Below, piece by piece: positions 1-51,872 of a stretch of 64,000 bases of DNA (position 1 is the stretch's first letter; each line of letters begins with the position of its first letter). The notes under the pieces are model-generated. The model was not told where the DNA came from. It saw only the letters and a program-made list of their open reading frames with translations, and made no database searches. The stretch spans positions 14,510,001-14,574,000 of the forward strand of contig NC_087245.1 of the NCBI RefSeq assembly GCF_037042905.1, given 5' to 3'. The stretch is from Lytechinus pictus. Taxonomy: Eukaryota. The translations under genes and the position numbers were made by a program.

Positions 1-115
1 CCAGACGATGATACGATAGACCAGAGGCAGTAGCGGTTGATGTCGTAGGGTAAAGGATAGTTAGGTGATCGTATCGTCCTGGTAAGAGGGGAAATTATGA
101 TTGTCTCCTCACAAT
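1..115 (-). CDS. Exon 37 (truncated by window): CUB9 N-part
   Basis: CEETIII..TIRSPNYPLPYDINRYCLWSI. Confidence 0.88.
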
Positions 116-3100
116 CTAAACAAAATGAACAATCAAAAAAGTTATTCAATATTAGTTCATGTAGGCCTTGGGTAATGTAGGGAGCATTTCATCAACATTT
201 ATATCTAACAAGTTGTCAGATCTGACAACTTTCCCTGATTTTAACTGACTGAGGAGCATAGTTCCTATGGTATCTGTCAGATAAAACAGGACTTGTCGGA
301 TAAAATGTCTGACAAGTCCTTTCATGAAACACGCCGAAGACCTCATAATTCATAATAGGGGGGTCACTTTTGTTTTAATCTTGTCTGAAACCAAGTTTCT
401 TATCTCAAATAAAGCCAATGCAACATATAAGAAAGGGAAGAAAATCTCATGGATACAGAATTCAACATGTTTTTCAATCTCCTGAGCATTTTTTTAAAAT
501 GATGATACAACTATTCTTGTCTTGGCACAAAAATATTATACAATTTTAGATTAATCAAATGATTTCATGATTATCAAAGTGATCTTGAGAAGATGATGTT
601 CTATCCCGATACTATTCAATTCAGTACTTTGAGTAAAACTTTTACCAAGTAGTTGCTGGGCTTAGAAATGTACTTTATTACAATTTATGTGTCGATTGGA
701 CTTCCATACCTCTATCTTGCTTTGCATCAAGTGAGAATCCTATATCGACAGTGGAGTAGTCAGATGTGAACCTGACCCAGCCGATAGACTCTTCAATCAT
801 GAGAGAGAATGGTTCCACCGAGCCAGAGAGTGAGACATAGTGAGAAGTGGGATCAGATGCATCATTACCACGACCAATCTCAACGATATCATACCTAGTG
901 ACAAAGATGAGCATACCGATACGAGGTAACTTTACTATGATAACAATATGAACATCAAGACGGCTATAACGGATGTTTTAAACGAGTGTTACATGAAAGA
1001 TACCATTAACAGCAGAGTTACAGCCATTAATGTGTACCTGGAAAATCACAAGTTGCTTGGTACAATCAAATTATAGCATATTCCATGAAAAATTGCACTT
1101 CATTTTTATAAATTTCATTTATCATTGCAAAAACAGAGTAGACAGTCATTTGATAGACCAAATGGGTTGCGTTCTCACAACGGTGTCCTAGCTTCTATGG
1201 AACTCTAGGTTTAGTCTTTAGGATTTATTCCAAAGATAATGTTCAAAAGAATCCATAGGAAATCCTACTTTCTATATTTCATTGTGAAATAATTTTCTTC
1301 TTTTTTTAATATACTTTTCACTACAGGATTGAAATACTTCGTATTTATCAAATTTAACGGAATAATCGCTCCATTCACTATTCTACTGTAAGTTAATCTA
1401 GGATCATGTGACTCAATGTTAGGCAATTCCATATCCAACATTTTTAGATTTTGTGTGCCTGATTTAGCACCTTGCTTTCCTTTTTAAAATTTGATACAAG
1501 GAAAATATGTCTTTCCTATCATCTGAATTTATTCATTCAAACAATTTTCTACTTACATTCCGAGTATAGTGGTATTTAGTCATGGTAATGGAATAAACTG
1601 GATATCTAAGCCTATGTCACAGGTTAATTAAATCATATAAATCAATTCAGTATTATACCAACACTGACTATCATCCTGTTCCTGTTTGTTGCAAGCTTCA
1701 TTTAATCAAAGGATTTGGGTTTTGAGGACGATCAACATGATTATTCCTACTGTATATATGAAGTGAGATGAAAATTTAAGAGGAATTGACCTGTTATGAG
1801 ACAAACAATGATATGAAAACTTACCCATATTCTGTAAAGAAAGCATTGGTGTCCATGCCAATCCTAAACCTGCCACCCTGATCTGCCTGTAGGTACCAGA
1901 CGCAGTCCAGGTTTGTGGGGTAACCTTGAGGGTAGTTAGGAGACTGGACCCTCTGGAAACCAGATACAGGGACAATCAATGTGCCGCCGCAGGTTAGGTT
2001 TGTGACCGGGCTCTCTGTCGGTGCTGGCTGTTTGGTGCCTGGGATTTCACCTGAAACCACACAATGATGAAAGATAGGAATAACATGTAATCTACCCACT
2101 GGGTTGAACTAACTTTGATTCCTCACCTTAATAAAACAATTCTTTTGTTTAGAGGCAGGTTGATGTTGATTTTGAATTGGATATCCAACGTTTGATCTGA
2201 TAAAATGATGCTTTATCATATTCCATCAATATCAGCAAAGTCAAATTGTTAGCACATACACTGCCTGATTCCCCTGAGAATTACAAACTAAAAATGAGCA
2301 AAACATACAGGTCTTGAAACTAAATATATAAACATTAAAAAATATTGAACATAGTCTCCCTCTAGAGGAAAAGACACTGCGAGAAACATTTGCTTAGTAC
2401 TTACTAGGAGTTTTCTCATCAGCAGTAAGTGAGAATCCCTGAGCTGCGGCAGCGTTAGAAGAATCAGTCTCCAACTTTACCCAAAGAGCATCCTCACTGG
2501 AACGTAAGAATGGTGGTTTGTTGGTTCCGGAGTAGCGATCAATCTCTGTCGCACCATCAGACGGATCCATGCCATAACCTACGATAAGGACATCATAGTT
2601 GTTCTCCAGGCTGAAGTCGGTGAAGTTGAGTTCAATGAAGTTATCGGCAGCGACCTTGACATCGCCAAGAGCAGTTGAGGATTGTTGGAAGACATAGGCA
2701 CAGTCCTGGTTGTCTTCGTAACCATTGGGGTACCCAGGAGAATTGAAAAACAATGGGACTGGTCCCATTTTGAGAGGGTAAACATTGGTGCACTGCTTCT
2801 CGGCAGGTAATTCTATTGTCAAGAAAAAAAGAAGGATGATAGTATAGATTTAAACATAGGTATTTGTAAGATGATTTAAAACATTACACAGTCAGATATT
2901 CCATGTTTCAATATTAGCATCATATTCTGCTACGTTTTATTCCAAAATCAGGTCACAAACCAATCTTAAGGTGTGCGGTGGCATTTACATGCAGATAAAC
3001 AAGGGTCCCATCTCATGTAAATTGGTCTAAAAATTGAATTATTTAGAGCCATACATGTATAAAACAGTTGAAATGGTGATATTTGATTAGCTGATGGCAA

Positions 3101-6100
3101 ATTTGTCTCAGAAAGTTTGCATTTGTTACTGATAATTAACTTTATGATTTAAAAGCTTGTGCCTGTTTCAAAAATCTTGTTATCAATAACAAATGTGAGA
3201 ATAAAAACCATAAAATCAGCCCTGAGCCAATAACATGGATACATTTCGGTAGCGTTGAACACTCGCATTTGCCTTGTCATTGATAACTAGTTTCGAGAAA
3301 CAGGGTCCGAAGTCAATGACATACAGAGGACTTACCAACATTGTACCTCGTGTAGGTGAAGAAGAAACCAAATCCTTCAATTCGATTGTCTGTCACAAAC
3401 CTGATCTGGATAGACGTGGCCTCACTGATGTAAGACTTGGGCAAAAATATTCCACTTAGCCTCTGAAAATGATCACAAGTGAAACAGCAAACTGATAGGT
3501 AATGAATACACTAGTATTGATGGCTTCAAAATTTGATCTTCGGGGAGGAAGGAATGACCCAAGACATGGAAGGTGAATTTGGTCACACCCATTTAACAGG
3601 TACAAAACTAGAATTTACAATTTAAACTACTGAGAGAGTGATAAGATAAAGAACATATGCAATAGATCAATGCTTGTGGTATATCACACTGGTATACCTC
3701 ATATGACCTTTGACCTTTAGTTGTGAGACATTTGACTCCAAATAAAAATTGATATGTTTAAACAACTCCTACCATCAAAGTTTGGTTACAAAAGAATAAA
3801 CATAAAGGTTGTTTTATAACTGTTCCATGTGGAAAATAGCAAGTACATTTCCAACATTTTACCTTATATGAGCCTTGACCTCCTTAAACGACCTTTGAAC
3901 TAATTACATCATTGTGGATGGATGGATGGATGCCATTTCCATATTTTTTTTTCCATCTTAGCAAATTCTAAACCAAAACAAAAGAAATCTACATGTATCT
4001 CTTCAAATCAATGCAAGTCTTATAGATAAGATTGTTTAAGCTACTAACCACTCTCTCCTCATATCAATTCTCTACCATCTCTGAGATGGTTAGATAGTCT
4101 TATCAAAGCAAGTCTTATAGATAAGATTGTTTAAGCTACTAACCACTCTCTCTTCATATCCATTCTCTCCCATCTCTGAGATGGTTAGATAGTCTTCGGG
4201 ATCAGGGAGAAGGAAGAGGAGCTGGAAACTCAGCTGGATGCGGGTATCCAAGGAGATGGTGTATACGCAATCCACAGACGGTGGGTAGTTACTAGGGAAG
4301 TTGGGAGATGAGATGTTGCCAGGGGCATCGGTGATGACGACAGGTTCCAGGCATCCTGCAAAAAGAATGTTTTAAAAGCAAACATAGAATGCATCACTTT
4401 CATCTATTGAAACTTCCCAGTATGTGAAAATACCTATTTTTCACTCTTCTGATTATTGCCGTTATTTTTTGTCAAACAGCGACAACACACGAGCTTGCTC
4501 CACGCACAAAGGTCACAATGTTGCGATGAAAAACAACCACTGTTCATGAGAAACACAGGAGACAATGACGAAATTGGCCAAGAAAATTAAGAAACGTGTC
4601 ATGATAATTCTACTTCCACTGTTCAATTTCATTGATATAAGCTTTAAATTTGAATTGCAATAAAAGTTTTTTTTTTTTAAAGAGTACCGAATATTCTACT
4701 CTCAAACATAATTTTTTATCAAGAATGGTGCTGCTGTCAGTTATTTCTTCGGAACACCATGAACGGAAGAACATAAACAAAACCCATCGCATTGGATGGA
4801 CTCTGGTGCTCCGACACGACTGGCTTAGTCCTATTAACTTCTCACAAAATACTAAAGAAAGTCATTCAAAAATATTACCTGCATAAGGAAGAGTGGTTGC
4901 TTCTATCGGAAGACCATAATCCAAGTTCCTATCGATAAGAAGCATTGGTTTGATGGAGAAGCGATACGCTGTGCTTGCACGAAGACCACTCACCACGCTG
5001 CTGTCGGAGGCACCACCTACCACCATGAATTCTTCAGCATTGTTGAGGTCTGTGTACTCAATCATGTACCCTATGACGTCACAGTTAAACAATGACGGGA
5101 CCCAAGTCAAGAGGATGGTTGAATCAGAGATCGCCTCACCACTGAAGTTACTTGGGGCAGTCTGGATTGGGACATAGTCTGTTGGGGTATGAAAAGAGGA
5201 GATAGATTGTATTCCAACATCAATTACTGTAGGGTTAACTAAGTATATCTTGAAGAATGTTTATAGTGAATCGGGTTTGCAACATGAATTTATATTTCAA
5301 TTGTGTCTCTGATTTATTGGCTATCAGAATACAGTATTGATCATAAAGTTGCATAAAAAATAGGCTTGCTTTACAAAAAAAAAGAAAGGGCGCCTTACAA
5401 ATAATACAAAATTCAACATCATCATTGGGGTTAGAATTTGCAGCACAAAGAACCATGTAAAAAATAAAGACATAAATCTACATGAATTAGAAAAATGAAA
5501 AGAACATGCAGGTAAAACTTTGTTACCCAAAGATATCTTTTTTAGTTCTCTTACCCCTGATAATAGGAACTTTACTTGACAAGGTTGCTATATTATGTTC
5601 TGCCACATTATGACATACAAGGCGATCCCTGCTGGAATTACCGGAATCACAAACTCTATTGTGACTTTATATTTCTTTCTCAAATCTACTACTTTCTTAT
5701 ACAGCACTTTGTCCTGCATTCCATATAATAATGATAAAGTGTAACTCAATCAAATAAATATTATTTTTCATTGCATCTTATGTGTATAACTTGATAAATG
5801 TAAAATAAATTAATCTAAATTATTCTGAATCTGAAAAAGAAAATAGATTTCTTCACTTACCCTTGGCAAAGATCTCACAGATGAATTGGTTTGGCCTCTG
5901 ACACGGCCAATCCATCCACTGACCACTGGAGATCATCTGGACACAGTCCTGGACATCACCTTCAGCTTCATCCGGTTCATCAGGTGCCCAGTTGGTCATC
6001 TGCCATGCGGTCATCGATGAGCAGTCCGTCCAACGGAAGTCACCCTCTGACCACTGGTCTTGCAATCCTGGCATTACATTATCATAATATTTATTTATGA

Positions 6101-9100
6101 TATCATATCAACCAAATAAATATAATATAAATAATCAGGATTTCTATAGCACTTTGAATGTATCATACACTGTAATCATGGCCTCATAAGGCAGCTAGTT
6201 TGGTAGTATAGCTGGGTTTTCTTTTAAACAGATTGCGCATATTAATTAATGCAAGCATAAAAATAGGACATTTGTTCAATCATTGAGATACGTGAGAACC
6301 CAGATTAGACATATCAGATGGAAAGTGAACTAATCAGGCGAGCGTATACAAGTATCGTGGCAAGATCATAGAGTTCGAGTAGTACTTTTGGTCACTACTA
6401 GAGAATAGATTTCAAAAGAGTATTGTACAATCCTATGCAAAACAAAGTACAACACAATAAACGGAAAGAGCAAAGCTGATTGCAATGCAATCACAGGAAA
6501 ATTATTTTCTGGGGAGCATTTCATCAACATTTTCATCTGACAACCTCCCTTGATTTTGATTGGCCGAGAAGAATGGTTCTTATGGTTACTGTTGGATAAA
6601 ACAGGACTTGTCGGATAAGAGTCTGACAATTCCTGTCATGAAACACTCCCTCATTGTGCAATTACAAACTCCAAATCATTTATATTTGAACTCTGAATAT
6701 CATGATATTCCAATATTGTCATGATATTACAATATTTGGGGTAAATATTAGGAAGCCCTGACATCACCACAACTGGGCCCGTAACACGAAGATCAGTGAT
6801 CAATCGCTAATTTAAAAGAGCAATTCTGATCACTTCCTAGTCAAATAACTGAGCAAAATGCGCATGCAAGGAAAGTCTTAATAAGCCATTTCATTTTACA
6901 GTGATTGATCGCTAACCTTTGTGTTACGTAACCCGGGACAGTCTGGCTACTTACCAATCCACCAATCTCCTTCCACTGTCTTATTAAGAATGTAATCATA
7001 TTCCTCTTGGTTGTCGACGACGACCAATTCACCTCCAAAGTCCTTACTGCATTCCAGACGAGCTTGACTCCAGGTTAAAGAACCCTTGACAAAACGATAG
7101 CAGCCACCCTGGTAACCTTCTTCATAGTCCGCTGGGCAACCAACTGAAAGGATGAGATCATAGTATTACAGATAACAGCAAACTCTCAAGTTGTAGGAAA
7201 GGTAATATCAGTTTAATATTGCGAATTCTTCTGCAGATTCTCTCACATTTAAAACATGACAATATCCAGCTTTTCTAACATATGTGTGCATGCAGTCCCA
7301 CGGGGGGATTTCTGTCTGCAGTGCAAGCAACTCGAAGCTAACAAGGATGAATTTCTGATCCTTTGGGTCATTCTAAAATCAAATACAGACCTGCCAACCA
7401 GTACGTTTTTGGTGTATTTAGTATGTTTTTGCAACCAAAATACGGCAGTGCATTTTTTTTTTTTTTTACAAAATCGTAATTTATTGAGAAAAATCATCTC
7501 TATATGTCTCTATTTCATAAAACTTACACAAATATGGTTATTAGATCAATGTAATTTTAGGTAACTTGTTTTTTTTTTCAATCATTTTGTTAAAACCAGG
7601 TTGAGATATAGACATGTTTAAATGTGTTTTTTTTTTCATCCGCAAGAGCAGTGCGCATTTTAGCTTGCATGCAGCTTGAGCACCGCGATGAGCGAGTGCG
7701 CCACGCATTTTATTATGAAATACACTTTTTTGGGGAAAATTCAATTTTTTTAATCACAGAATACACTTTTTCATTCCCAGAGGTTGGCAGGTCTGCATAT
7801 AGCACAGGCTGATATCTACATGTATATGCATTATAGACAAGTATTTGTTCATTCGTTTGAGGGATTGTTCTGCAAGCCAGAATTTTAGTAGCTTTTAAAA
7901 GACGTCAGAGATTTCTTCTGACAAGACGTTTCACAAAGGGCTTTCATCTAACCTGTTTCATTGTTGGTTCTAGCATCGATGCGTTCACTGTATGACAGCG
8001 GCCCGTTTATCGTCAGAGCAGCGATCCTGAAGCCATACTCAGTATCAATCAGCAGATTGTTGACAAGATAACTGCTTGTTTCTCCACCATCAATGTCAAC
8101 GGTGGTTGCAAGTAGACCCTGAGAGATGAGGATTCGGTAGCCTGTCACATCACAGCTGAAATCAGATGGTACCCACGATAGGAGGATGCTGACGATGGAG
8201 AGAGGACTGGCTAAGAACTCTGTGGGACTCAGGTCTCTTGGTTCAAGATCTTACAGAGGGAAAGGAGAAAGGTATTATCATTTTAGGGCAATTCCATAAA
8301 ATAATCAACCTTTTTGTACATCCAACCCCCATATTCTCAAGTTTTACTTCAATTCATAAACTTACCATGTCATGATCATTTGAGAACATTACAGACTGTC
8401 AAAAGAACCAGAAATCAGAGGCATAAAATTTCATGAAAGTCTCACATATAGGGGGTTGGGTGTACATATCTTATGGAATTGCCCTTTGTCATTTCAAAAT
8501 TGGAGGCTACATGTAATATTAATGATCAAAATCATATTTACACAAAGAATAAGATTAAAAACAACATCATCAAAAAGTAACAAAAATATTCTATCATAAT
8601 CTTAAATAAAATCTTGTAAACTAGCTCAAACTATTTGAAAATACAAGAATATATGCATATCCTAGTGCTTCCCCATATTCTGAGATTACTTACTGCGAGG
8701 ATCGAGCTCACAGATATACATGTTTGGCCTGTCACAAGGCCAGTCCATCCATTCTCCGCTAGAGATCATCTGACCACAATCTTGAGTCCCATCGGAATCA
8801 TCTGGCTGACCTGGAGCCCAGTTGGACACCTGCCAGATGTTCATCTCAGTGCAATCTACCCACCGATGGTTGTTTTCTGTTCCAACATCGTACAACCCTG
8901 AAGACAAGGAGGTAATCAGTGACACAATAGGCTTCAAATAAAGAAAGTTTTATTCATGCAAGTAATTCTCTTAACACGTTGACTCCTGAAAAATCTTGAA
9001 TGCAGACAGACTTTGAACTGGGTCATCCGGTTACAGAAGCCTAATCTGTAATGCCTGCTGAAGTCTGTAACTCCCACCTTTCAGGGCATGTATTTGTACA

Positions 9101-12100
9101 ACAGAGCAGATTTTGAGATCAAACTGATTAAACTCACATTATAACTTATATGTAATAAAAAACCTTCCCTTACAATGTGTGGGTTTAATAATACATGTGC
9201 GCATGTTGCGCCCTTAATGTGACGTCATTTATATGCATTAATCCGAAGATATTTATCAACCACAGTGTATTCAACCCCATGCAGTGATCACAGTATTTCT
9301 CAGTCAAAATGATTAAAATCTGCAAATGAATGCTACAGTTTTCACGGGATGTTACTTATAGTTCTACTAATTTATTCTTATTCCCCTGGCACTTGGATTT
9401 CATCATTCGGTTAAATATTTTTTAAATTGTTCATTCTCACTCGCGGCCCACACTATCTTTTGTGTCTTTAGGAATAGGTGGGTGACCCACAGGCCTCTCA
9501 TGATGATTGACATTGGTGGTGCATGTATTATAAAACACAAAGATTGCATGACAACTCACCAACCCACCAATCACCCCCTCTTGTTGTATTCAGGATATAT
9601 TCCAGTTCGAATGGGGTCTCAATGACGACCAGATCTCCACCATTGGTTTGTTGGCAAACCTCTCGAGCATCGTGGAATTCAACCACACCAGGAACAAATC
9701 TATAACAGTCTCCAGTTGGACCAAGCTCGTAATTTGCAGGACAATCTAAAAATGAATAAGGCCAATGTGGTAGTCAAGAGATTCATTACACCAGACATGC
9801 AATATGCTGTATCTGCCACTATATACAGTACCTGTATGTGTAGATACTTGCCAATGCAGTACAATTTTCAATAAGAATGCATAATCTGGAGTTCTTACTC
9901 ATGTTTCTAATAGTGGCTCATATCCTTAACAGAGCACACTGAATTTATAGATGTAGAAAGATGGACAGAGGGATAGATAGGTAAGTAGGTAGGCGGATGG
10001 ATGGGTGGACAGATGGACAAACAGTCCGACCGAACGAGAGACGGATGGATGGCAACCACCTACAATAGGCCGGGGGCATAAAAAGTGCTATTTTTACCAA
10101 GATACACTAATAATAGCTCACTTTTATGTTGTCATTTTCCCCTATGAGACTCAAGACACTTACCCTCAAGAGTAGACACCTCAACCCCAGCTGAATTACC
10201 AAGATTTCCAAAACTGAAGGTCAGAGTATCAATGAATATGACATAGTCGGTGGCTGGGGTCAGATTGTTGATGATAGCGCTTGAAGTGTCTCCGCCAGGG
10301 ACAGTCAGCGTTCCCGTATCTCCATTTTGGCCCTGCCAGCCTAAGATGTAGGCCAGGATGTCACACTGTTGTGAAGAAGGGAACCATGTTGCCGTAATAG
10401 AAGATGGGGTTTGGGAGTTGCCTCTTAACAGCAAGGGTGACACACTATCTGGAGACGAATCTGCAATAAGATAAAAATTGATTTTAAGCCATTACATGTG
10501 ATTTGATAACTGTTTAATACACACTTTAACTAAATGTACATGTATGTGCATTTTGAAGACCATTTCATTACACCGCTGAGATTTTCCACACATCTTTCAC
10601 AGTATGTACTTGTCATGTTTGAGTGAGTCTCAAACTTCAAACAAGATTTTTTTTTTCTTTAATCTGTGAATAATTCCTTGACAGTCTTCTGTACTGAATC
10701 AAGTGGTTAATTCTAGTTCATACTTTTTTTTTACAATATACTTATACATATATAGTCTTGCTTCTTAGGGACCCTAAGTATTTTAACGCTGTAGTTTGGT
10801 TTTATTTTGAATCCTATATATGTTGTGTTATGTCATATTTTTATGTTCAAATAAATGAATCAATAACTAAAATAATGAATTATTTTCAACATCAGTCCCT
10901 GTGATTTTTTTTTTCAAACTGTAGGAACAACTCAGAATTCATTTTGTCTCAACATCTGATGGTTCTGAGTGAGATTGTCACATGACACTTGCAGATTCTG
11001 AAGAATCAACATAGTAGGTAATTTGTATAGAATTTGCCTTTTGGACACAAAAACATGTTTTCTTTCAAGGAAATCATATGAGAAATGTAGAAATTTCTAC
11101 TTCTATCTGGAAAATGATACCGCTAGCTATTGCAAAGATTTCATCAATACTCACCCCGGTCTTTGATCTCACAGATATAAAGGAGAGTGTTACTGCAAAC
11201 CTGGTTGCTCCATGTTCCTATTACACCATCGAATGTAGCACAGTCATAATCTACATCGTCGTTGCCTGGCTCACCTAGTCCCCATTCAGTGTAAGAGGGC
11301 GCTGTGCAGTCCGAACCCCATCGCCAGTCACCTTCGTTCACTGCATCATAAAGACCTGGCAAATACATAATGTGATGAATAAAAAATAATTTTCCTCATT
11401 CAAGAATATAAGGAATATTTATTTGATTAGATTCACATCAAAATATTACAGGAAATAGTTTTCGTCAAAACTAATAACGTCATATTTTCCACTACTTTTC
11501 AAAAGAATTTCACTGACCCACTAATTTGACATACTGTAGTCAGGCATTCCCTGTGACCTTCTTTCGGTTGCCTCCTATCTTATTGACTTCTTACACAAAG
11601 AATTGTTGAGATCTTATACTAAGATTTGTCACATCCCATCTCACCCTTAACCCTCTGAATACTGAATTCTCTCATTCCCATAGACATTTGTATACAGACC
11701 ACCCTGGGCCTGTAGGCAGGGGGTTAACTTACCAATCCAGTATTGTCCATTTCCTGTCTGTCCCTGTAGGTATGCCGTCATAGTCTCATTTGTGATTTCA
11801 ACCAGATCTGAATTCTCGGTCTGGAGGCAGTCTGCTCTTGCGTCAGTCCAAGAAGCAAAATCTATGCTAACCTTGAAGCAATTACCAGCAAAACCGAGGA
11901 CATAGTCAGAAGGACAGGCTGCCAAACAATGTAAAGCAATATATAAAACAAGGTAAACTCATTAACCCAAGGCCTAGTTTCCATGAGCAAATTTATTGAA
12001 ACATACTACAGTGGTCTGAATTTTCAGACTACCAACTGATTATTGTTTCCATTTCAATAAACATAATAAAATCAATGATAATAAAAATAATAATTTCACT

Positions 12101-30100: not shown

Positions 30101-33100
30101 AAATCTGAAATGCAATCAATCAGTAGTAATAAAAGAAAAATATGATACTATAATCAATACTTGAGGACACCAGCGTACCTACGGGGGGACAGAGGGGGCA
30201 GACTGCCCCCCTGACGAGTCACAACCCATGCAAGGGACATATCCCTGCCCCCCCCCCCCCCTGACGAGTTTTGAAGACTTTTTTTTTTTTTTTTTTTGCT
30301 TGTCAAATTTGTTTCTGGTACGAAATCCTTTATTTGTGGTTGAAGACCTTTTTTTTTTTTTTTTGCTTGTCAAATTTTTTGGCGGACGAATTTGCCCCCC
30401 CTGTGGAAAATCCTAGGTACGCCACTGCTTGAGGATCTGGATACGGGTCATAGCATGCACGGCCATCCAATTTTCCAAAACCAAAACAGATCTCCTTGTC
30501 CTAATTTGAAAGTGTTTGAACGCTTCTTTTATTTTAAGACAATTAATCTTTACTAAAATTTAGTCCGTGTACAAAATCAAATCAGGTCACTTTTGTTCAA
30601 ATGGTTTGGACGCCCTTTACAAATAAGGATACAGGATGAATTTGAAATACGGAGGCTGACTTCAAACAATAGCACACTAAATTAAAGCAACAGAGAATGG
30701 AGAAATGACTGAGGAGCAAGAGCGGCGATCCAGCTAGGGGGACGGGGGACATACCTCCACCCCCTTCGAATTTCATTTTTTTAACAGCAGCGTACGAGGG
30801 TTTTCTCACCCTCCAGGACCTCCCCGACAAGTTGATTTGAATGGAGAAAAGAAAAATCTAATAAATGCCGGGAATGAAACGTAAGGCTGAAAATTTCATC
30901 AAATTCGGATTTGAAATACTGATTTTTTTTTTTACATTCACAAAACAGTTACATAAATATCGAGGTTGGTAAGCAAATAATGACAAACTGATGACGTAGG
31001 CCTACCCACTCATTTTTTTTTCTTCAAAATTTGATTACTAGTATAATAATGATAAATATCAAAATAGAAGACAGAAATATTACAGCATGGCATATTTGGT
31101 TTTTCATTCGGGAAAGAGCACATTATTTTTTTATTATTTTAATCTTGACTTATAATTATATAGATATACATGTAAAATACAAACCTTCATTTCCTAAATT
31201 CAAGTCTCCCCCACAACTAGTATCAGGTCTATCAGATATGATATCCATTACTGTCGGGAAAAAAAGGTGTAAATAGGATAAAAGAATCATACCTTGCAAT
31301 TTTTGCATTTAAAGAAGTATAAAGGCAATGAAATCAAAATGAAACACAGGTGAATATAATTGACTGCTCATCTAGCGGGTCCTACTCTTGACATGGTATT
31401 ATTCTTGATCACCTGGGACCCGTTTCATAAAGCTGTTCGTAAGTTATGAATGACTTTATGCACGACTGGTAACCCTGTCTTGTGCTATATGATTTCCCTA
31501 TGTATCTGACTCATGTATAAGAACATGTTTCAGTCGTTCGTAAATTTGTGCGTAACTTTACGAACAGCTTTATGAAACACCACCCTGGCAAGAAGATCAA
31601 TGCCCTGTTTATATTCTTTGTTCAACTTGACCGGGGTCCGAACTCACAACCTCGCATTTATTTTTTTTTAAACGCTGTACCACAGAGTCATCACTCCTGC
31701 GTAATGAATATAATTAGCATGGAAATTAATGTGAAAATTAATAATGATAATAATAATGATAATATGGACTAATATAGCGCAGCTACTATAAATACTCATG
31801 TTCTTGATTACCCCGGCTGTATAGCTGAGCCGCCGTATAGGCGCTAAAACATCCAAGGAATAAATCATACCGGTATACCCATTCACCTTACCTGGGTCGA
31901 GTGCAGCACATGAATGTCGGTAAATTTCTTGTTAAAGGAATAAACGCCATGGCTGGAATTCGAACCCATGTCCCTCTGATTGAAATACATTAGTCGAAAC
32001 CACTAGAACACGATGCGACGCCCCCACGAATAGATGAATACGTGTAGATAAATACCAGGTGTGGAGACGGTCAGAGTATTATAGTTTTTTGGGGAAAATG
32101 TCACAGAGAGGGCTCATAACGTTTTTCATGTTGCTCCCCATGAAAATGACCCAAACCGTTCTAATTACGGATGCATGCATTGAACATGTTAAACAAAACA
32201 ATTTTGATTCTCTATAACCTTGTTTTAAGCCATGCAGTTTTGATTCTTGGTATTTGTAAAGTTGTGATGAAAACTGCCTTCTCTGATCTCTACCACCGCT
32301 TTGTAATAAAAACAATAAAATGGAAAGTAATTCCCTTCCGTTTGAATTCAGAATAAATTATTAACGTATGGGACTTCAAACAAGCTCTTACCACTGTCTG
32401 GTTCAACGATTAAATGGAAACCACGCCCACTTCTAGAATAATCTGTCATAAATTCCACTGTAACATAATCCGCATCCCTCACAGTCAATTGGCCGACATC
32501 ATCGGTAGGCGTTCCGGACTCGTAGAGCAGAACTTCCGGACCCGACGTCATTGAATAAGAAGTAACTTTCAACCAATCACGTTGATCTTCTGTGTCCATG
32601 TCAACGATGGTCATTACCATGACACCGGTGCTTGATGACGTAATATTCCATATATAATACGTATCATCGTCGTAGAGCATTGGGTAGTCATTTGTGTAGA
32701 GATGAAGTGCTTTTCCCGGTTTTAGGTCGATATCGTCCATAATGTGCTTACGAGAGATCGGGTCTGAAATTATATAAAGGCGGAAAAGTGAGGAAAAAAT
32801 TATTACTCAATATCCTATCTTAATGCCTATCTTTAACTTTGGTAGATAACCAAATATTCACTATCCCAATAAATAAATAATATGCCCTAAATGCCGAGGA
32901 TATGAACAAATTTGCGATTTTACTACAAAATTAAGTTCGATCGGATTCCCGATCAAAATAAAATTTAAACCTGTCTTTTACCTTTTGATTTAAAATCTAT
33001 TCATTTTCATGTAATGGGCTTAAAGTGTCAGAATATGGTCTTTGTCTAATCACTCAAATCTGTAAGATAGCTGCAAAAGAGTCTATTCAAATGGAATAAT

Positions 33101-36100
33101 ACAAAAAAAATTGAGAGGGCGATAGATACGAAGCAATGTCAAATTTTAATTAATTTTTTTTTAAATTATCTATCGCTACACTTTTGTATGATTAAAATTT
33201 TACTCGAGTATAATTCACATTAGACCCCTTATCAACGCTTTACAGCACGCCTGACTTTAATTATCACTAATTAAAGAATACTTTGTGTAAGCAATAACGC
33301 TGTAGGAAACACAAGTCCAATCTTGTATTGATTTACCCAGCTAGATATAGCCACCTCGGTTATAAACGGTTCGAAGAGCGGGTCGTATCCGGTTCACCAT
33401 TCGAAATACCGAACTCAATGCAAGTGAGAACTACGACGGTACAATGGTCGGTTAAGAAGTATTTACAAAACTAACACTATTCACATTGGGAAATATTACA
33501 AAGTTAATAGCAGGGAAGCAGTGAGATTTTAGAAGATGAATTACAGTAACATTTTTTATTGAATGAGAATACATGTATAGATCTTAAAAGTTCATTTGTT
33601 CACCAGCAGATACTAGGTTTGAAGACAGATATTTTTCCTCATTTGTAATTTACTCTTTCTTGTACTTCTCTAAGTTCTCTTTACTTTTATGTTTTGCTCT
33701 CTTCTGAGTATTTAATCAAAATGGAAAAGACGCTATTTAAAAAATATGTATTATTATTGTTATCATTATTATCATTTACAAGAAAATATTCATTCCGAGT
33801 TGCATTTCATAATACTATTTGGAGAATAACAACTACAAAATTAAAGAACAAACTAATTTTGCTTTAAAAACTATATTCGGGAAGAAAGAAAGTATTTTAA
33901 AAAAGCTGAAACATACCTCTGGTATACTCAGTATAACTAAAACTAAATCCGGTGGCATTGTTCTCCACTCCATCAGAAATGAAAGTAACTTCGAAACCAC
34001 TCCCAATGAAATCCTTTGGTAGTGAACTCCCTGTTAACATCTACACGAGGAAGATGATGAAAGGGGGTCAGTGGGGAGAAAAAGGGGGTTTGAAAGGGGG
34101 GAATGGCCCGGGAAAATTGACAGGCAGGAAGTTAAATGAGAAATTGAAAGAGATATGGTCGATGAAGCTAAACAAACCCCCGAAATAGCCCCGATGCCTA
34201 TTTAATACAAAAAATGTCATCAAAAAATTGATTAGGTTACACAATATCAATTTTGCACATACTCATGATACTGCAGACTGTGTGGCTGATGTAGTGGCGG
34301 ATCAACGGGGGTGGGGCATATCTTGCCCGTCCCTCCCCTTGACTTGACAATTATATACAAAAATATAATTAGTGGAAAATGTCGGGCATACGCAAGTGAA
34401 GACTTTGGTTTTTTTTTGCTTTGTTTTTTGTTTTGTTTTGTTTTGTTTTTGCATGTCCAAATATCCGTGCCATTATTCACCTTCGTAAAGGATTAATCTT
34501 TTTTTCCTTGTCAGATTGCCTCCCCCCCCGGAAAATCATTGAGTCGCCACTGGGCTGAAGGTATATGTGCAGAAACAAGCATAAAGTGATATCACATTTG
34601 CACTATATAGCCTATGGGCTGGTGGGCAAATTGTATCGAATTGTCAGCATTCAAATTTCTTGAAAACTGACTAATTTGACTGATCTATTTGCCTATCTAC
34701 CCTCCAAATTCCTTAATTTGGAAATCAATTTAGATTGTGGTGGGGCCGAAATTTCAAATTAGATTAAGAATAAGAATGAATTCTCACTTTATTAGATTGT
34801 TTATTTTTTTAATCAGTTTTTCCTAGCAATCTAAAGAATTGTAAATTGTATCGTTTCGCTTGCTCGTATTTTATTTTTAGAAATAATTCAATATTTCTTC
34901 ATTATTTGACTATTAGCTCTCATTATGATGCATATTTTCATTTGATATACCGTTTGTGTGCCGTGATCATCAACCACCATCACGTAGTCGTCGCCTTCCC
35001 TGAGATCGAAGTCTGTGAACTTTAATCGTAAGCGGTCTTGAGGAGCTTCTAACACTATAGAACAGTTCCACGTTCCCGGTGTATTTTCGTATGGTGAGGG
35101 GTAACCCGGTGACGTAATCACGCCAGGAATGGTGCTTGGTGGATTACAGATGTCTTCGCCTGGGGAAAGGAATAAATGCATTATGGTAAAAATGCCTCGA
35201 TCAATATAGAAGAAATAAGCCACTCCAAGAAATCAAATAAATAATGTGAAAAATAGAAAATAAAATATGAAATTAAAGATACCTTAAAGAAGTGTAGTAA
35301 AAAAATATTCAAAAAAATTGATTAATTGAATGAAAAACAAATAAATATATTTTGAAAGTGAAGAGAAATGATGGCCCTACAACACCAATATGAATGTAAT
35401 CCACGTAGATACTGATTTTAATATTTCAATCAAAAAGGGAAATAAAAACGGAAAATAAAACAGAAAGAACCACGTGAGTCCCATAGCACAAAACTATTAA
35501 TTAGAGTAATCAGTATAGAACGAAATAAAATTATATTTAAAGATATAAAGAAGCAATAAATACCAGATCAATTAAAATACATATAATAATAAATTATCAA
35601 GGAGATACTCGATGATAAGGTCCGCATGGCGTATCTAGAGAAAACAATTCTGAGTGACATAAGGTTCCGTTTCCACCCCCCCCCCCCCCTTCTCACCTAT
35701 ACACACTCACACTTTATTTTTCCAGAACTACATTTTTTTTTCTTTAAGTTTCCTTTTCTCAATTTCCTGGTTTGATTACAGGGCATTAAGGGTTTCGTCC
35801 TCTATAGCGCCATTCCTGACCAAGGTCCCTTTTCATAAGACTTGATATCATTACAAATGCACAATTTCTATAACACATCTACATTATTGCAAGTTTGTTA
35901 TCATGTTTTTTAAAACCGGTCCTAAATCAATACAAAATTATTTACCCCAATAAAAATGCATAATATTTCACTACTATTTTTTCCCCTTCTATTATCATTG
36001 CCGATTTCTCAGTGGGCTTAGTCAGTTTTGATAAAAACATTCTTGAATAATTCTTATAAAAATGTCATTGAAATTTGTTGCACATATCACTTGGGTGAAG

Positions 36101-38876: not shown

Positions 38877-38909
<33 letters not shown>

Positions 38910-39193
38910 AATAAATAATTAATTAAATAAAAGAGATAATCTTCATTTATTATGTACGACTTGTGATAAACAATTTCTTAGCGATATCCTTCATAATAAT
39001 TGATCTCAATTGGAACATAACTAAATAAATCAGTTTGGTGAATATTATTACAGTCGAGCGTTATATGTAACTTTTTAAACGGCTTTATGAAAAAACACCA
39101 AGGGATGTTTCGTATTCTCGTTAAAGGCATTTCCTCTGAACTTCAAAGCGATAAAAAAATGACCATTTAGCTCTTGATATAGTCAAGAAAAGA

Positions 39194-39263
<70 letters not shown>

Positions 39264-40126
39264 TAACTTTCTTCTTATAAACATTTACCCCGAACTATTT
39301 TTAAGGATCTTTCACGTACCTTCTTAGTCCGAAACCTCTATATACGAGTGAACGCTCTTTGCTATCATTAATATTAGTAAAATATGTGAGTTTATAATTA
39401 CTAAAAAATTTAATCAAATGTGAGAAAGCACCGGTAAACTTGGGGAAAATGATTGAGATATTTCTTTTATCAAAATTATAAATATGTATCAATAAATAGT
39501 AATTGAATAACAATTGATTCCTGTATAAAGCTATATTTCGAACAACGTAGAACACACTGGGAGTAAATATATGTAGTTCACATGAGGGTTATACACAGTA
39601 AAAAAAATTATACAACGCTGTTTACTATATGAACCTTACAGTAATTGTTTAAACAGTTTAAACAAGTGTTTAAATCTTAAGCAACGAAGTTTAATTTTCA
39701 ATATCTAATCTTCAATAAATTAAACATGATTGTTTAAATGGTTAAAAAAATACTGTAAGGTTCATATAGTAAACAGCGTTGTATAAAATCTTAAACAGCG
39801 TTTTTACTGTGTATACTTTGAAGGCAACATTAGGAATTGCCAAAATAATACCTCGAAGGCTATTAATTACAAATTCATACAATAGAAATGACCAAAATAA
39901 GCAAGAATATTCAGAACCAATGAATTTCCTAGTAAGAAATATTCTATAGGATTTATTTTAAGCCTATACATCGTTTTTAAAGGGTTGTATAAACATAAAT
40001 TAAGCATGATACGGATAATGATGATATAAATGTAAGTTTAAACTGTAGAAATGAAGAAAAATTACCATATGATGTAGAAGTTGTAAAGACAACGACCAAA
40101 GCAAATATCATCCACGACGTAGCCAT
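1..40126 (-). CDS. Whole gene span: large extracellular mosaic protein, SP-CUBx5-(CTL-FN3)x6-CUBx>=4; 37 coding exons in window, 3' end beyond left edge
   Basis: 37 exons with GT/AG boundaries join in a consistent phase into one open frame of about 7250 nt; CUB, C-type lectin and FN3 consensus motifs are recognisable by eye. Confidence 0.9.
710..894 (-). CDS. Exon 36: CUB8 C-half
   Basis: YDIVEIG..LSGS..WVRFTSDYSTVDIGFSL. Confidence 0.9.
1825..2050 (-). CDS. Exon 35: CUB8 N-half
   Basis: TCGGTL..VQSPNYPQGYPTNLDCVWYL. Confidence 0.92.
2405..2812 (-). CDS. Exon 34: CUB7
   Basis: FNSPGYPNGYEDNQDCAY..FTDFSLENNYDVL..LETDSS..GFSL. Confidence 0.92.
3336..3462 (-). CDS. Exon 33: CUB6 C-half
   Basis: RLSGIFLP..IQIRFVTDNRIEGFGFFFTY. 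Confidence 0.88.
4006..4197. repeat. 95-bp tandem duplication overlapping the exon 32 donor
   Basis: GCAAGTCTTATAGATAAGATTG at 4013 and 4108. Confidence 0.9.
4144..4355 (-). CDS. Exon 32: CUB6 N-half
   Basis: CLEPVVITDAPGNISSPNFPSNYPPSVDCVYTI..EDYLTI. Confidence 0.88.
4879..5178 (-). CDS. Exon 31: FN3-6
   Basis: LTWVPSLFNCDVIGYMIEY..VSGLRASTAYRFSI. Confidence 0.9.
5861..6067 (-). CDS. Exon 30: C-type lectin 6 C-half
   Basis: EGDFRWTDC..NWAPDEPD..DCVQM..WMDWPC..FICE. Confidence 0.9.
6955..7143 (-). CDS. Exon 29: C-type lectin 6 N-half
   Basis: GCPADY..GCYRFV..TWSQARLEC..WWIG. Confidence 0.9.
7386..7795. mobile_element. MITE
   Basis: Perfect TIR CAGACCTGCCAACC; no clear TSD. Confidence 0.7.
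7953..8249 (-). CDS. Exon 28: FN3-5
   Basis: ILLSWVPSDFSCDVTGYRI..VNNLLIDTEYGFRIAA. Confidence 0.9.
8287..8484. mobile_element. MITE
   Basis: TIR GGGCAATTCCATAA / TTATGGAATTGCCC. Confidence 0.65.
8694..8897 (-). CDS. Exon 27: C-type lectin 5 C-half
   Basis: RWVDC..NWAPGQPD..DCGQM..WMDWPC..YICE. Confidence 0.9.
9560..9745 (-). CDS. Exon 26: C-type lectin 5 N-half
   Basis: DCPANY..DCYRFV..DAREVC..GDLVVI..WWVG. Confidence 0.9.
10164..10460 (-). CDS. Exon 25: FN3-4
   Basis: SITATWFP..QCDILAYIL..INNLTPATDYVI. Confidence 0.9.
11155..11355 (-). CDS. Exon 24: C-type lectin 4 C-half
   Basis: EGDWRWGSDC..GEPGN..DCA..WSNQVC..YICE. Confidence 0.9.
11733..11918 (-). CDS. Exon 23: C-type lectin 4 N-half
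   Basis: CPSDY..NCFKV..SWTDARADC..YWIG. Confidence 0.9.
12300..12441 (-). CDS. Exon 22: FN3-3 C-part
   Basis: VDGAQSDSVVVMNLEEDTRYFFTISP. Confidence 0.87.
13147..13298 (-). CDS. Exon 21: FN3-3 N-part
   Basis: YPTDFEA..VSLTWTIPANLCSVTGYRIQY. Confidence 0.87.
14986..15160. repeat. 175-bp imperfect hairpin
   Basis: ACAAATATATCAGGC..GCCTGATATATTTGT arms, centre GGGGCTTCGCCCC. Confidence 0.85.
15456..15644 (-). CDS. Exon 20: C-type lectin 3 C-half
   Basis: MSDSETEGDFTWSTC..DCVYL..ENC..FLCK. Confidence 0.88.
16079..16261 (-). CDS. Exon 19: C-type lectin 3 N-half
   Basis: CPRLY..FCYRY..TWTEASFEC..ADLVTI..GWIG. Confidence 0.9.
17077..17379 (-). CDS. Exon 18: FN3-2
   Basis: LTWSPPAQFCDITGYKV..VDGLSKGMFYTFRL. 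Confidence 0.9.
17652..17846 (-). CDS. Exon 17: C-type lectin 2 C-half
   Basis: EGEFLWTYEC..ENCV..GLWNDANC..YICE. Confidence 0.9.
18174..19045 (+). mobile_element. Internally deleted piggyBac-like DNA transposon
   Basis: TTAA at 18170-18173 and 19046-19049; termini CTCTTT..CGC / GCG..AAAGAG; acidic ORF start at 18421 (MAPRRLFSVDEARELML..DSDSE). Confidence 0.7.
19479..19673 (-). CDS. Exon 16: C-type lectin 2 N-half
   Basis: DCPTGYDYFLGESCY..SWVEARDQC..YWIG. Confidence 0.9.
19760..20655 (+). repeat. Tandem repeat, ~170-200 bp unit, about 5 copies
   Basis: Recurrent GTTCATTGACCCTAAATGACCTTTGACCTTGGTCATGTGACCTGAAACTC..TGTCCAAGTTTCATGAACTAG. Confidence 0.85.
20881..21067 (-). CDS. Exon 15: FN3-1 C-part
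   Basis: IRY..SIVINGLNTSTTYHFEL. Confidence 0.88.
21569..21684 (-). CDS. Exon 14: FN3-1 N-part
   Basis: YPSNFRVEEVSYTKADLRF..LCDVSGYK. Confidence 0.85.
21762..22031. mobile_element. Harbinger-like MITE
   Basis: TIR GGCC..GTCTTACAAAGAG; CTG TSD. Confidence 0.75.
22453..23268. mobile_element. Non-autonomous hAT-like element
   Basis: TIR (C/T)AGGGCTGTTATCG; exact 8-bp TSD TCACAGTA at 22445 and 23269. Confidence 0.85.
23439..23642 (-). CDS. Exon 13: C-type lectin 1 C-half
   Basis: GEWVWVDC..NWQTGAPNN..HCAY..YNDDMC..YVCE. Confidence 0.9.
23824..24036 (-). CDS. Exon 12: C-type lectin 1 N-half
   Basis: DCPEGYEY..CYKFV..SWLDARYDC..GDLVVI..WWIG. Confidence 0.9.
24989..25109 (-). CDS. Exon 11: CUB5 C-half
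   Basis: ILTGSEVPDDVVSRFNGLNLRFKTDSAMSSSGFKLIF. Confidence 0.9.
25843..26069 (-). CDS. Exon 10: CUB5 N-half
   Basis: GEIDSP..YPDDADCQWIVQV..VRLHFLEFDLEYGHDQLLIG. Confidence 0.9.
26614..26805 (-). CDS. Exon 9: CUB4 C-half
   Basis: EHNYDVFEIGTGMDP..SGEMWVVFSA. Confidence 0.87.
27401..27556 (-). CDS. Exon 8: CUB4 N-half
   Basis: YGCSGEIDL..VYCQWLIKTP. Confidence 0.85.
27890..28075 (+). mobile_element. tRNA-derived SINE
   Basis: A box TAGCTCAGTCGG, B-box-like GGTTTGATTC, followed by a non-tRNA body. Confidence 0.7.
28120..28307 (-). CDS. Exon 7: CUB3 C-half
   Basis: EYLEIRSG..RLTG..VTLIFSSGNADLNRTFHAHV; phase 2 to 1. Confidence 0.82.
28475..29950. mobile_element. CpG-rich non-autonomous DNA element, family uncertain
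   Basis: CCCCTA..ACCCCGGGG / CCCCGGGGT..TAGGGG ends, AA on both flanks; left end complicated by a short local duplication. Confidence 0.5.
29990..30104 (-). CDS. Exon 6: CUB3 middle
   Basis: LPEETSNLHCIWRIENSFKERISIEV; GTAAG donor. Confidence 0.82.
30168..30427. mobile_element. hAT-like MITE (CAGTGGCG family, poly-C/poly-T)
   Basis: TIR ..GCGTACCTA / TAGGTACGCCACTG; TSD CTTGAGGA. Confidence 0.8.
31185..31250 (-). CDS. Exon 5: start of CUB3
   Basis: MDIISDRPDTSCGGDLNLGNE; phase 1-1, CAG acceptor, GTTTGT donor. Confidence 0.7.
31416..31584. mobile_element. Harbinger-like MITE
   Basis: TIR GG....GTTTCATAAAGCTGTTCGTAA; CTG TSD. Confidence 0.75.
31770..32025 (-). mobile_element. tRNA-derived SINE
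   Basis: Minus-strand A box and GGTTCGAATTCC B box; body shared with the 57505 copy; (TTA)n-like tail. Confidence 0.7.
32392..32763 (-). CDS. Exon 4: CUB2 (no cysteines)
   Basis: TNDYPMLY..IWNI..DMDTEDQRDWLKV..VEFMTDYSRSGRGFHL. Confidence 0.9.
33917..34040 (-). CDS. Exon 3: CUB1 C-half
   Basis: LTGSSLPKDFIGSGFEVTFISDGVENNATGFSFSY; phase 0 to 1. Confidence 0.88.
34292..34552. mobile_element. hAT-like MITE (CAGTGGCG family)
   Basis: TAGTGGCG / CGCCACTG; TSD GGCTGATG vs GGCTGAAG (7/8). Confidence 0.7.
34951..35159 (-). CDS. Exon 2: CUB1 N-half
   Basis: EDICNPPSTIPGVITSPGYPSPY..NCSIVL..LKFTDFDLREGDDYV. Confidence 0.9.
36489..37196. mobile_element. Possible Kolobok-like non-autonomous element
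   Basis: Right end ..TCCCCTTTAA; left end degenerate AAAGTGGA. Confidence 0.35.
39594..39811. mobile_element. Palindromic MITE with CAC..GTG ends
   Basis: CACAGTAAAAA / TTTTTACTGTG, TA on both flanks, long internal inverted arms. Confidence 0.7.
40066..40126 (-). CDS. Exon 1: signal peptide MATSWMIFALVVVFTTSTSYG
   Basis: AACCATGG start context, hydrophobic core, phase-1 GTAAT donor matching the next exon. Confidence 0.8.

Positions 40127-51822: not shown

Positions 51823-51872
<50 letters not shown>

Follow-up and report, generated by a model that had tools for sequence, protein, structure and literature searches.

A giant mosaic protein is encoded on the minus strand of the window, i.e. 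the 64,000-nt stretch of Lytechinus pictus DNA analysed here, which holds its first 2416 residues; CUB blocks flank an array in which C-type lectin (CTL) and FN3 domains alternate. The full protein (4162 aa, ~464 kDa, 33 domains) has the architecture signal-CUB5-(CTL-FN3)6-CUB5-(CTL-FN3)5-CUB-SEA-like-TM-tail, and in the sequences compared this architecture is conserved across four echinoderm classes. A calcium-dependent multi-ligand scavenger (endocytic) receptor is the proposed function, to which we give about even chances.

Gene model and domain order

Thirty-seven minus-strand exons, joined by coordinates between the ATG (40126) and window position 1 (7250 nt), gave a chain of 2416 aa with 0 stops. 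GT-AG borders were present at 36/36 introns, all 36 were phase-compatible, and the introns between domains were without exception of phase 1 (21/21). The translation was identical at 2416/2416 residues to the NCBI proteins P0284 and P0285, representing the start of the 4161/4162-aa NCBI model. The earlier note had claimed 37 phase-compatible exons and more than 2400 aa, and the splicing and protein comparison that it proposed bore this out with one open chain. Using the Strongylocentrotus purpuratus orthologue as tblastn query, 35 of the 37 exons were matched, those left unmatched being the signal exon and one of 66 nt. Tblastn with eight family proteins revealed no further CUB, CTL or FN3 exons inside introns; its four matches outside the model were an alignment overhang, two to a short duplicated exon end, and a weak one (E 0.22). 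In four runs, RNA only by guess, 0.21-0.23 of the sampled words from positions 2001-11900 were recovered, close to the expectation of 0.249 for exons alone; being unaligned, these words do not count as evidence.

Pfam scanning, exon by exon on 35 of the 37 exons (E≤0.1), identified CUB in 10/15 CUB exons, Lectin_C in 11/12 CTL exons, and fn3 in 6/8 FN3 exons (Table 1). CUB3 and CUB4, with split exons devoid of Pfam matches, were assigned via alignment to the other CUBs and via orthologue matches. The order in the window is thus signal peptide-CUBx5-(CTL-FN3)x6-CUBx3 plus the beginning of a fourth CUB after the CTL-FN3 block, which is exactly the order predicted from the letters alone, with at least four CUBs at its end. 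CTL6 was the best-conserved CTL of the window (90% to S. purpuratus).

Table 1. Features of the gene within the window, listed in the direction of transcription.
Feature	Position	Strand	Exons	Evidence and remarks
Exon 1, start codon and signal-peptide-like stretch, aa 1-20	40066..40126	-		hydrophobic window aa 1-24; P0284/P0285 start identically
CUB1	33917..35159	-	35159-34951, 34040-33917	Pfam CUB 2e-5, first exon
CUB2	32392..32763	-	single exon	no Cys; E..D..D triad; Pfam CUB 2e-5
CUB3	28120..31250	-	31250-31185, 30104-29990, 28307-28120	diverged; no Pfam match (2 exons scanned); alignment; NCBI model identity
CUB4	26614..27556	-	27556-27401, 26805-26614	diverged; no Pfam match; alignment; sea star best match CUB4-CUB4
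CUB5	24989..26069	-	26069-25843, 25109-24989	in-register paralogue of CUB10; Pfam CUB 7e-9
CTL1	23439..24036	-	24036-23824, 23642-23439	extra Cys697; Pfam Lectin_C, second exon
FN3-1	20881..21684	-	21684-21569, 21067-20881	module Cys782 and three echinoid-specific Cys; weak fn3 match
CTL2	17652..19673	-	19673-19479, 17846-17652	extra Cys932; Pfam scan, Cys analysis
FN3-2	17077..17379	-		single Cys1015; fn3 2e-9
CTL3	15456..16261	-	16261-16079, 15644-15456	extra Cys1158; Pfam scan, Cys analysis
FN3-3	12300..13298	-	13298-13147, 12441-12300	single Cys1237; Pfam scan, Cys analysis
CTL4	11155..11918	-	11918-11733, 11355-11155	extra Cys1382; Pfam scan, Cys analysis
FN3-4	10164..10460	-		single Cys1465; fn3 2e-7
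CTL5	8694..9745	-	9745-9560, 8897-8694	QPD...WMD calcium/sugar-site pattern; extra Cys1609; Pfam scan
FN3-5	7953..8249	-		single Cys1694; fn3 3.5e-9
CTL6	5861..7143	-	7143-6955, 6067-5861	EPD...WMD pattern; extra Cys1839; Pfam scan
FN3-6	4879..5178	-		single Cys1925; fn3 2e-8
CUB6	3336..4355	-	4355-4144, 3462-3336	Pfam CUB 5e-9
CUB7	2405..2812	-	single exon	E..D..D triad; Pfam CUB 8e-14
CUB8	710..2050	-	2050-1825, 894-710	E..D..D triad; Pfam scan
CUB9, beginning only	1..115	-		Pfam CUB 1e-4

A split into two or more genes, for instance a secreted "cubilin-like" one for the N-terminal part and one downstream for a receptor, would agree with older annotations, in which the S. purpuratus locus was divided between a "cubilin" of 785 aa and a model of 3290 aa and that of a sea cucumber lay in several pieces, and with one NCBI isoform that begins at aa 377; the junctions rest on DNA and protein models. 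Such a division is highly improbable, as the old S. purpuratus break falls mid FN3-1, the current models of ten species carry both the CUB and the CTL-FN3 blocks in one chain, and the chain has one signal peptide, no stop and phase-compatible introns throughout. Within the reach of the tools a single gene is supported, its one ORF agreeing with the NCBI model at every residue.

A cysteine pair and the distribution of the family

An extra CTL cysteine was present in 176/176 family domains that cover the column (out of 177 from 20 proteins) vs 0/105 mannose-receptor-like invertebrate controls, and a loop cysteine in 173/173 family FN3s vs 18/1361 unrelated FN3s. Exactly 8 cysteines were counted in 135/144 CTL-FN3 pairs. 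Both cysteines were kept where a lone CTL-FN3 cassette sits between CUBs, which fits pairing of each CTL with the next FN3. Very probably, each CTL is disulfide-bonded to the following FN3, giving a rigid two-domain cassette that was copied and shuffled between phase-1 introns. In five echinoid proteins 11 cysteines fall in the first pair and an odd 113 in the ectodomain, both of which the pairing model leaves unexplained. The structure model of two pairs had a pTM of 0.49, and CTL6 and FN3-6 predicted as two chains scored 0.03, as computed without alignment, a value that speaks neither for the bond nor against it. Among the matches listed for the two-pair model by Foldseek against PDB (best query TM-score 0.26), and likewise among those from a search of solved structures by sequence, each chain had either CTL or FN3 alone and none was a CTL-FN3 structure; the best sequence matches of the CTL parts were in the mannose receptor family. 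The extra-cysteine pair and the predicted disulfide-locked cassette are, judged by sequence, new here.

Under the name "uncharacterized", RefSeq already includes the protein and its orthologues from sea urchins, sea cucumbers, sea stars and crinoids, e.g. LOC579551 (S. purpuratus, 74.7% identity) and LOC121424455 (L. variegatus, 95.7%). The 33-domain order was identical across five echinoid proteins, and sea cucumber, sea stars and crinoids had the same plan with other repeat counts, from 8 to 14 pairs between classes. The orthologues formed one clade (support 96/95, tree from the CUB-SEA-TM region). An echinoderm paralogue group has the plan (CTL-FN3)n-CUB2-3-SEA-TM, and in hemichordate "cubilin-like" relatives from three acorn worms CUB8-(CTL-FN3)1 is repeated, the cassette with both cysteines. 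No alternating plan was seen in brittle-star, chordate or protostome proteins, either among the 31 and 34 matches listed or within a set of 249 proteins; the searches were word-limited or FN3-ranked, so the taxonomic range is a lower bound.

The N-terminal domains diverge faster than the membrane-proximal ones (to Diadema: CUB3 39%, FN3-2 40%, CTL3 43% vs CTL9 80%). Together with the multivalent CTL array and four Saccoglossus relatives in a suggested tandem cluster, this would suit an innate-immune pattern-recognition or phagocytic receptor of coelomocytes or gut epithelium, with microbes as the main ligand and a mechanism overlapping that of a scavenger receptor. We regard an immune receptor as improbable, because the orthologue tree tracks the host classes without expansion, and EPN/WND occurs in just 1/63 site-bearing orthologue CTLs vs 33/42 control CTLs of mannose-receptor-like proteins.

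The earlier note had recognised no characterised family with this architecture, and this holds as far as the tools reach. In the papers searched, neither the family nor its function was described, and locus and accession ids led to no paper; the 2006 echinoderm adhesome survey may contain an earlier mention. The ids tried had no match in the supplements of PMC10396339 or PMC5460417, outside which large expression tables may fall, and the protein is not described in the available parts of PMC11401434, PMC2884547 and PMC10140915.

Membrane end and comparison with known receptors

Beyond the window, the database protein models, by which this part of the gene is known without genomic DNA, add ~1745 aa with CUB10, five CTL-FN3 pairs, CUB11, a SEA-like domain, a membrane helix (aa 4022-4042) and a 121-aa low-complexity tail, predicting a single-pass type I membrane protein. 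The SEA-like domain was modelled with pLDDT 84.7, and the closest juxtamembrane folds were PCDH15 MAD12, CDH23 MAD28 and CELSR1; Z was moderate, from a two-domain model (PCDH15 MAD12 9.4-10.0, IA-2 7.5, MUC16 SEA 6.5). A paralogue gave a SEA lead in ESM Atlas (score 0.84), and the modelled domain is accordingly described as SEA/MAD-like. In echinoid paralogues, a basic RRRR run lies within it.

In the tail, the motif N[VI][YF][YF] was aligned in 10/12 orthologues and absent in sea cucumber and Antedon; this NxxY/F lacks the proline of classic NPxY and is short enough for chance occurrence, and the mannose-receptor-like control tails have F-x-N-x-x-Y instead. The second motif [DE]PxYA, which presumably resembles a phosphotyrosine docking site more, was found in 9/12 orthologue tails and in the echinoid paralogues. 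SNX17 recognises NxxY/F, according to the available part of PMC11589680. Of the roles proposed in the earlier note, scavenger or adhesion receptor remain, and a secreted matrix protein is unlikely in view of the single-pass topology, the SEA-like domain and the tyrosine-bearing tail.

The protein resembles cubam, as described in the available part of PMC6283879, in its CUB arrays, many with acidic calcium-type residues, in its size (~460 kDa), and in having a single membrane helix immediately preceded by a SEA-type domain, as in amnionless. In cubam, ligands are linked to acidic residues of the receptor by calcium, and cubilin starts with an N-terminal coiled-coil/beta-helix region and 8 EGF-like domains (same source). 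In contrast, CUB1 here follows directly after the signal peptide without a trimerisation region, no EGF family is in the Pfam list of P0255, the 11 CUBs stand in blocks of 5, 5 and 1 instead of 27 in tandem, 11 CTL-FN3 pairs are inserted, and the membrane anchor and tail belong to the same chain. Identity with cubilin is ruled out by the N-terminus, CUB count and own membrane helix.

The mannose receptor family (MRC1, Endo180, PLA2R, DEC-205) is defined by N-terminal ricin-like and FN2 domains, and shares with the protein type I topology and many CTLs; an asparagine-tyrosine motif in the tail may be a further likeness, although NxxY/F here stands against F-x-N-x-x-Y in the control tails. The protein differs in having CUBx5 in place of ricin-like or FN2 domains, strict CTL-FN3 alternation vs uninterrupted tandem CTLs, QPD/QPN instead of EPN, and the extra cysteine that all 105 controls lack. 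The CUBx5 N-terminus and the interrupted CTL array exclude this identity. In the sea urchin egg bindin receptor EBR1, TSP1 and CUB alternate behind an ADAMTS-like metalloprotease head. It is likewise a very large echinoderm surface protein in which CUB blocks are combined with a repeat of two alternating domains; however, no TSP1 or ADAMTS-like Pfam family is listed for P0255, and with CUB, CTL, FN3 and SEA-like domains accounting for the whole ectodomain, an EBR1 or ADAMTS-like identity was rejected. CTL and FN3 also occur in one chain in chordate clusters automatically named PTPR-eta/H-like and tenascin-like, contactin and small prokaryotic proteins (ESM Atlas leads, scores 0.81-0.91), but no CUB is listed for these, and all but contactin, which has Ig domains, are much shorter than the present protein. 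A receptor tyrosine phosphatase or contactin was dismissed, as no PTP or Ig family is listed for P0255 and the tail is of low complexity.

Putative calcium sites, proposed function and meaning

The E..D..D triad of calcium-type CUBs was present, at motif level only, in 7/11 CUBs of the L. pictus protein and in 87/124 of the orthologues. Calcium-dependent sugar-binding CTLs carry EPN/QPD-type and WND-type site residues; this pattern, often as hybrid QPN/QPS/EPD, was found in 6/11 CTLs (CTL5, 6, 7, 9, 10, 11) and was absent from 5/11. Among orthologue CTLs, 63/111 had the pattern, 53 of them Q-type, and in the paralogue/other group 63/66 CTLs were without it. Glycan binding, which the earlier note had suggested for the protein, is thus plausible only for some lectin domains, in the window for CTL5 and CTL6 and not for CTL1-4.

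All 33 domains are net acidic, and the part in the window has a pI of ~4.05 with 384 D+E vs 132 K+R. Such an acidic calcium-binding ectodomain, like the RRRR run of the echinoid paralogues, might belong to a structural surface-coat or biomineral protein, shed or displayed at a mineralising or apical surface. A Patiria CTL+Cub+FN3 protein, PMI_003522, whose identity as a family member is not established, was reported in a skeletal proteome (available part of PMC5460417) from one peptide with 41% probability, a match below any normal threshold. CUB had 0 occurrences in the text of the S. purpuratus test and spine proteome (PMC2527298), relatives are present in three acorn worms, and a role inside the cell is implied by the conserved motifs of the tail; a surface-coat or biomineral function is quite improbable.

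The acidic CUBs with calcium-type motifs, the QPD/QPN lectin motifs and the NxxY/F tail fit a calcium-dependent scavenger receptor. On this reading, protein ligands would be caught by their basic residues on the acidic CUB blocks, through calcium as in cubilin, and glycans by those membrane-proximal CTLs that carry QPD/QPN motifs. The FN3s would serve as spacers, uptake or recycling would be driven from the tail motif, and the whole would resemble a single-chain cubam with lectin arms. A point against this is that adhesion proteins have SEA/MAD domains just as typically. The main rival, although unlikely, is a receptor for signalling and for adhesion between cells or to matrix, with a long stiff ectodomain on glycans or matrix and tail tyrosines recruiting SH2/PTB/FERM adaptors. 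It would agree with the closest juxtamembrane folds (PCDH15, CDH23, CELSR1) and the shared [DE]PxYA motif, and the locked cassette would suit a load-bearing rod. However, no RGD occurs in the 2416 aa of the window part and no catalytic domain was found in the protein, the uniformly acidic surface disfavours homophilic binding unless bridged by calcium, and the variable number of pairs between classes would be unlike a fixed-gap adhesion molecule.

More tentatively, the locked cassette may descend from the ancestor of echinoderms and hemichordates and have been shuffled into several genes, defining an unnamed giant-receptor family, of which this member would be a single-chain cubam equivalent with galactose-type lectin arms and a main bulk protein and glycoprotein uptake route in echinoderm epithelia or coelomocytes.

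All domain types are familiar, and function is inferred from sequence. The analysis names and delimits a giant surface-receptor family of four echinoderm classes and acorn worms, so far hidden behind the labels "uncharacterized" and "cubilin-like", and the locked lectin-FN3 cassette, as its invariant cysteine pair suggests, would be a new structural unit that can be reused. Should its role be that of a scavenger receptor, the protein would provide a concrete candidate for protein and glycoprotein uptake by echinoderm cells.

Gene model within the window

The window is AT-rich, eukaryotic DNA, and the rebuilt minus-strand gene comprised 37 exons, with a spliced length of 7250 nt encoding 2416 residues and zero stops. 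GT-AG borders were present at 36/36 introns (181–4906 nt), and all 21 between-domain introns were in phase 1. The domain order read in the earlier note, CUBx5-(CTL-FN3)x6-CUBs (CTL, C-type lectin), recurred in the rebuild, and its 37 phase-compatible exons with more than 2400 aa were borne out by splicing in silico. When 35 of the 37 exons were scanned against Pfam one at a time (E≤0.1), the expected domain was returned by 10/15 CUB, 11/12 Lectin_C and 6/8 fn3 exons; CUB3 and CUB4 had no match in these single-exon scans, and are putatively assigned from alignment.

Because the model was identical to NCBI proteins P0284 and P0285 at 2416/2416 residues, and the S. purpuratus orthologue matched 35/37 exons, the exon chain is not due to chance; the gene, predicted earlier in public annotation, is judged to be real. 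That the exons belong to two or more genes is highly improbable; the locus is divided in an older S. purpuratus annotation, but the break cuts through the centre of FN3-1. Among predicted isoforms (P0288/P0286), one form of the gene begins at aa 377 and lacks a signal peptide.

Features located in the window
Position	Strand	Feature	Remarks
1–40126	-	Gene under study	ATG at 40126; exons down to position 1
20881–21684	-	FN3-1	Three added cysteines (756, 830, 836)
4007–4196		95-bp tandem duplication, 95% match	3′ end of first CUB6 exon and donor copied into intron; possible second donor
18382–18846	+	154-codon open frame, acidic stretch	In intron 16; presumably resembles piggyBac-type transposase start; no credible Pfam match, no terminal inverted repeat reported
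about 48400–52720	-	Probable small upstream gene	First exon encodes one hydrophobic helix, several polar exons follow; start codon (ATG) near 52720; frames tried gave no Pfam match
59941–60174	+	Exon-like frame, several hydrophobic segments	Presumably resembles monocarboxylate (SLC16-type) transporter start; no Pfam match
51671–51921, 61020–61448, 61874–62465, 63383–63947		Repeats	GTA microsatellite (85 copies); two 16/32-bp minisatellite arrays, opposite orientation, 289-bp tandem pair between

Full-length product and its relatives

Searches with the FN3 repeats led through crinoid and Diadema relatives to the full-length protein of 4161–4162 aa (about 464 kDa), in the order signal, CUBx5, (CTL-FN3)x6, CUBx5, (CTL-FN3)x5, CUB, a 130-aa juxtamembrane domain, membrane helix and a 121-aa tail. 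The C-terminus, left outside the window by the earlier note, is thereby supplied with a single membrane helix (4022–4042). The model of the juxtamembrane domain matched PCDH15 MAD12 (Z 9.4, rmsd 2.5, 97 aligned), CDH23 MAD28 (Z 8.9), IA-2 (Z 7.5) and MUC16 SEA (Z 6.5), values that are moderate and obtained with a two-domain query, and all these matches point to a SEA-like fold.

Domains of the relatives were called with profiles made from those of the protein under study, in agreement with Pfam for database protein P0004 and with precomputed Pfam lists. The closest named relatives were L. variegatus LOC121424455 (95.7% identity) and S. purpuratus LOC579551 (74.7%), pointing to a Lytechinus-like sea urchin as source of the window, and the 33-domain order was identical in five echinoid proteins, as far as Diadema (53%). 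Sea stars had 3–4 plus 5 CTL-FN3 pairs, crinoids 4 plus 4–5, and Apostichopus 14 in three CUB/pair blocks. Domain order of this kind, in a predicted type I membrane protein, is shown to be kept across four echinoderm classes. CUB5 and CUB10 were mutual best matches in 5/5 proteins with 11 CUBs, as were CUB1 and CUB6, and CUB3 and CUB8, in both sea stars, and the two CUBx5 blocks are, by sequence, in-register duplicates.

A tree of 19 proteins, built on the stretch running from the final CUB through the SEA-like domain to the helix, rooted by midpoint only and omitting proteins without membrane helix as well as P0164, P0004, P0310, P0328 and P0330, grouped the orthologues together (support 96/95), with unresolved basal forks within the group. 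Two hemichordate proteins fell outside it, as did a group of paralogues built as (CTL-FN3)n-CUB2-3-SEA-TM. In sea star paralogue models P0251 and P0319–P0321 the CTL number varied and runs of adjacent CTLs occurred; exons used alternatively, or FN3 exons passed over, may account for this. A basic run (RRRR, RRKRR), possibly a convertase site, was located within the SEA-like region of echinoid paralogues and one crinoid protein (P0262, P0303, P0305, P0164), and was absent from orthologues of the gene under study.

Full-length echinoderm records were all labelled 'uncharacterized', and acorn worm proteins with CUB8-(CTL-FN3) repeats 'cubilin-like'. Cubilin, the mannose receptor family, receptor phosphatases and contactin were rejected on their defining tests, as was EBR1. 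CTL and FN3 are also found together in other proteins (Atlas leads), for which no CUBs are listed. No description of the family was found in the literature searched, which covered few subscription journals or large supplementary tables, and the architecture has possibly been listed before. The sole mention found that may concern the family comes from a skeletal proteome (PMC5460417), where a Patiria protein combining CTL, Cub and FN3 domains was represented by a single peptide at 41% probability.

Cysteines of the CTL-FN3 cassette

In addition to the usual six cysteines, the CTLs carry a seventh shortly after the W-x-W motif. Of 177 family domains from 20 proteins, the alignment reached this column in 176 and the cysteine was present in 176/176, against 0/105 CTLs of 8 mannose-receptor-like proteins; an FN3 cysteine, which we place between strands B and C, occurred in 173/173 family FN3s versus 18/1361 FN3s of 245 unrelated proteins, counts that are not independent events since the domains share descent. 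In the comparison that took in the single cassettes, the column was missed in three hemichordate CTL matches (the terminal match of P0322 and two in P0316, where the first CTL is without the segment holding it) and in an FN3 match at an N-terminus. Exactly 8 cysteines were counted in 135/144 pairs (14 proteins), the remainder being five echinoid first pairs with 11, three pairs with 9 and a single artefact of counting.

In every block the opening CTL and the closing FN3 retained their cysteine, as did single cassettes between CUBs, among them those found in Diadema (in a CUB-ZP protein) and in Ptychodera. Cysteine-marked cassettes were also seen in other genes, in P0330 of Diadema setosum (CUB5-(CTL-FN3)2-ZP-TM, named DMBT1-like) and P0328 of Ptychodera flava (CUB-cassette-CUB3-EGF/FN3). 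The simplest reading of the counts would be that every CTL shares a disulfide with its downstream FN3, and a locked cassette is very probable. Such invariance at about 30% identity is indicative of strong constraint. The CTL5-FN3-CTL6-FN3 model had a pLDDT of 85.3 (good domains) and a pTM of 0.49.

The added FN3-1 cysteines were kept in 5/5 echinoid proteins and absent in non-echinoid classes. Together with these extras, unaccounted for by CTL-FN3 pairing, the ectodomain totals 113 cysteines; because this number is odd, one FN3-1 cysteine may be free or in an inter-chain bond.

Predicted ligand binding and candidate function

All 33 domains were net acidic (−6 to −24). The E..D..D triad, which we take to define the calcium-binding CUB type, was found in 7/11 CUBs of the protein and 87/124 orthologue CUBs. 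Our own sequence pattern for the CTL calcium/sugar site fitted 63/111 orthologue CTLs (26 QPN, 14 QPS, 13 QPD, 10 E-type), 3/66 of the paralogue/other set, and 42/105 control CTLs (33 of 42 EPN/WND); in the protein under study it fitted CTL5, 6, 7, 9, 10 and 11 and was unmatched in CTL1–4 and CTL8. QPD is associated with galactose and EPN with mannose, and from the hybrid motifs sugar specificity could hardly be read with confidence.

In the tail, N[VI][YF][YF] was aligned at one site in 10/12 orthologues (echinoids, sea stars, Anneissia) and missing from Apostichopus and Antedon; [DE]PxYA occurred in 9/12 and also in echinoid paralogues, and sea star paralogues had WNPAF. One S. purpuratus isoform model (P0288/P0286 set) stops ahead of both tyrosine motifs. 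Cargo-tail NxxY/F is described in excerpts of PMC11589680 as recognised by SNX17.

In cubam (PMC6283879), ligands are bound by CUB arrays through acidic residues together with calcium, and the SEA domain and membrane helix come from amnionless; the protein under study would combine cubam-type parts, plus lectin arms, in a single polypeptide, apparently a likeness of design rather than demonstrated homology. A calcium-dependent multi-ligand scavenger receptor is a reading to which we give an about even chance. An adhesion or signalling receptor is a distinctly weaker candidate, an immune recognition receptor is unlikely, and a surface coat or mineral matrix protein slightly more so. For originality and ease of testing, the invariant cysteine pair ranks first among the points of the analysis, and the uncharacterised family, present in echinoderms and hemichordates, is predicted to be of the giant modular surface receptor type.
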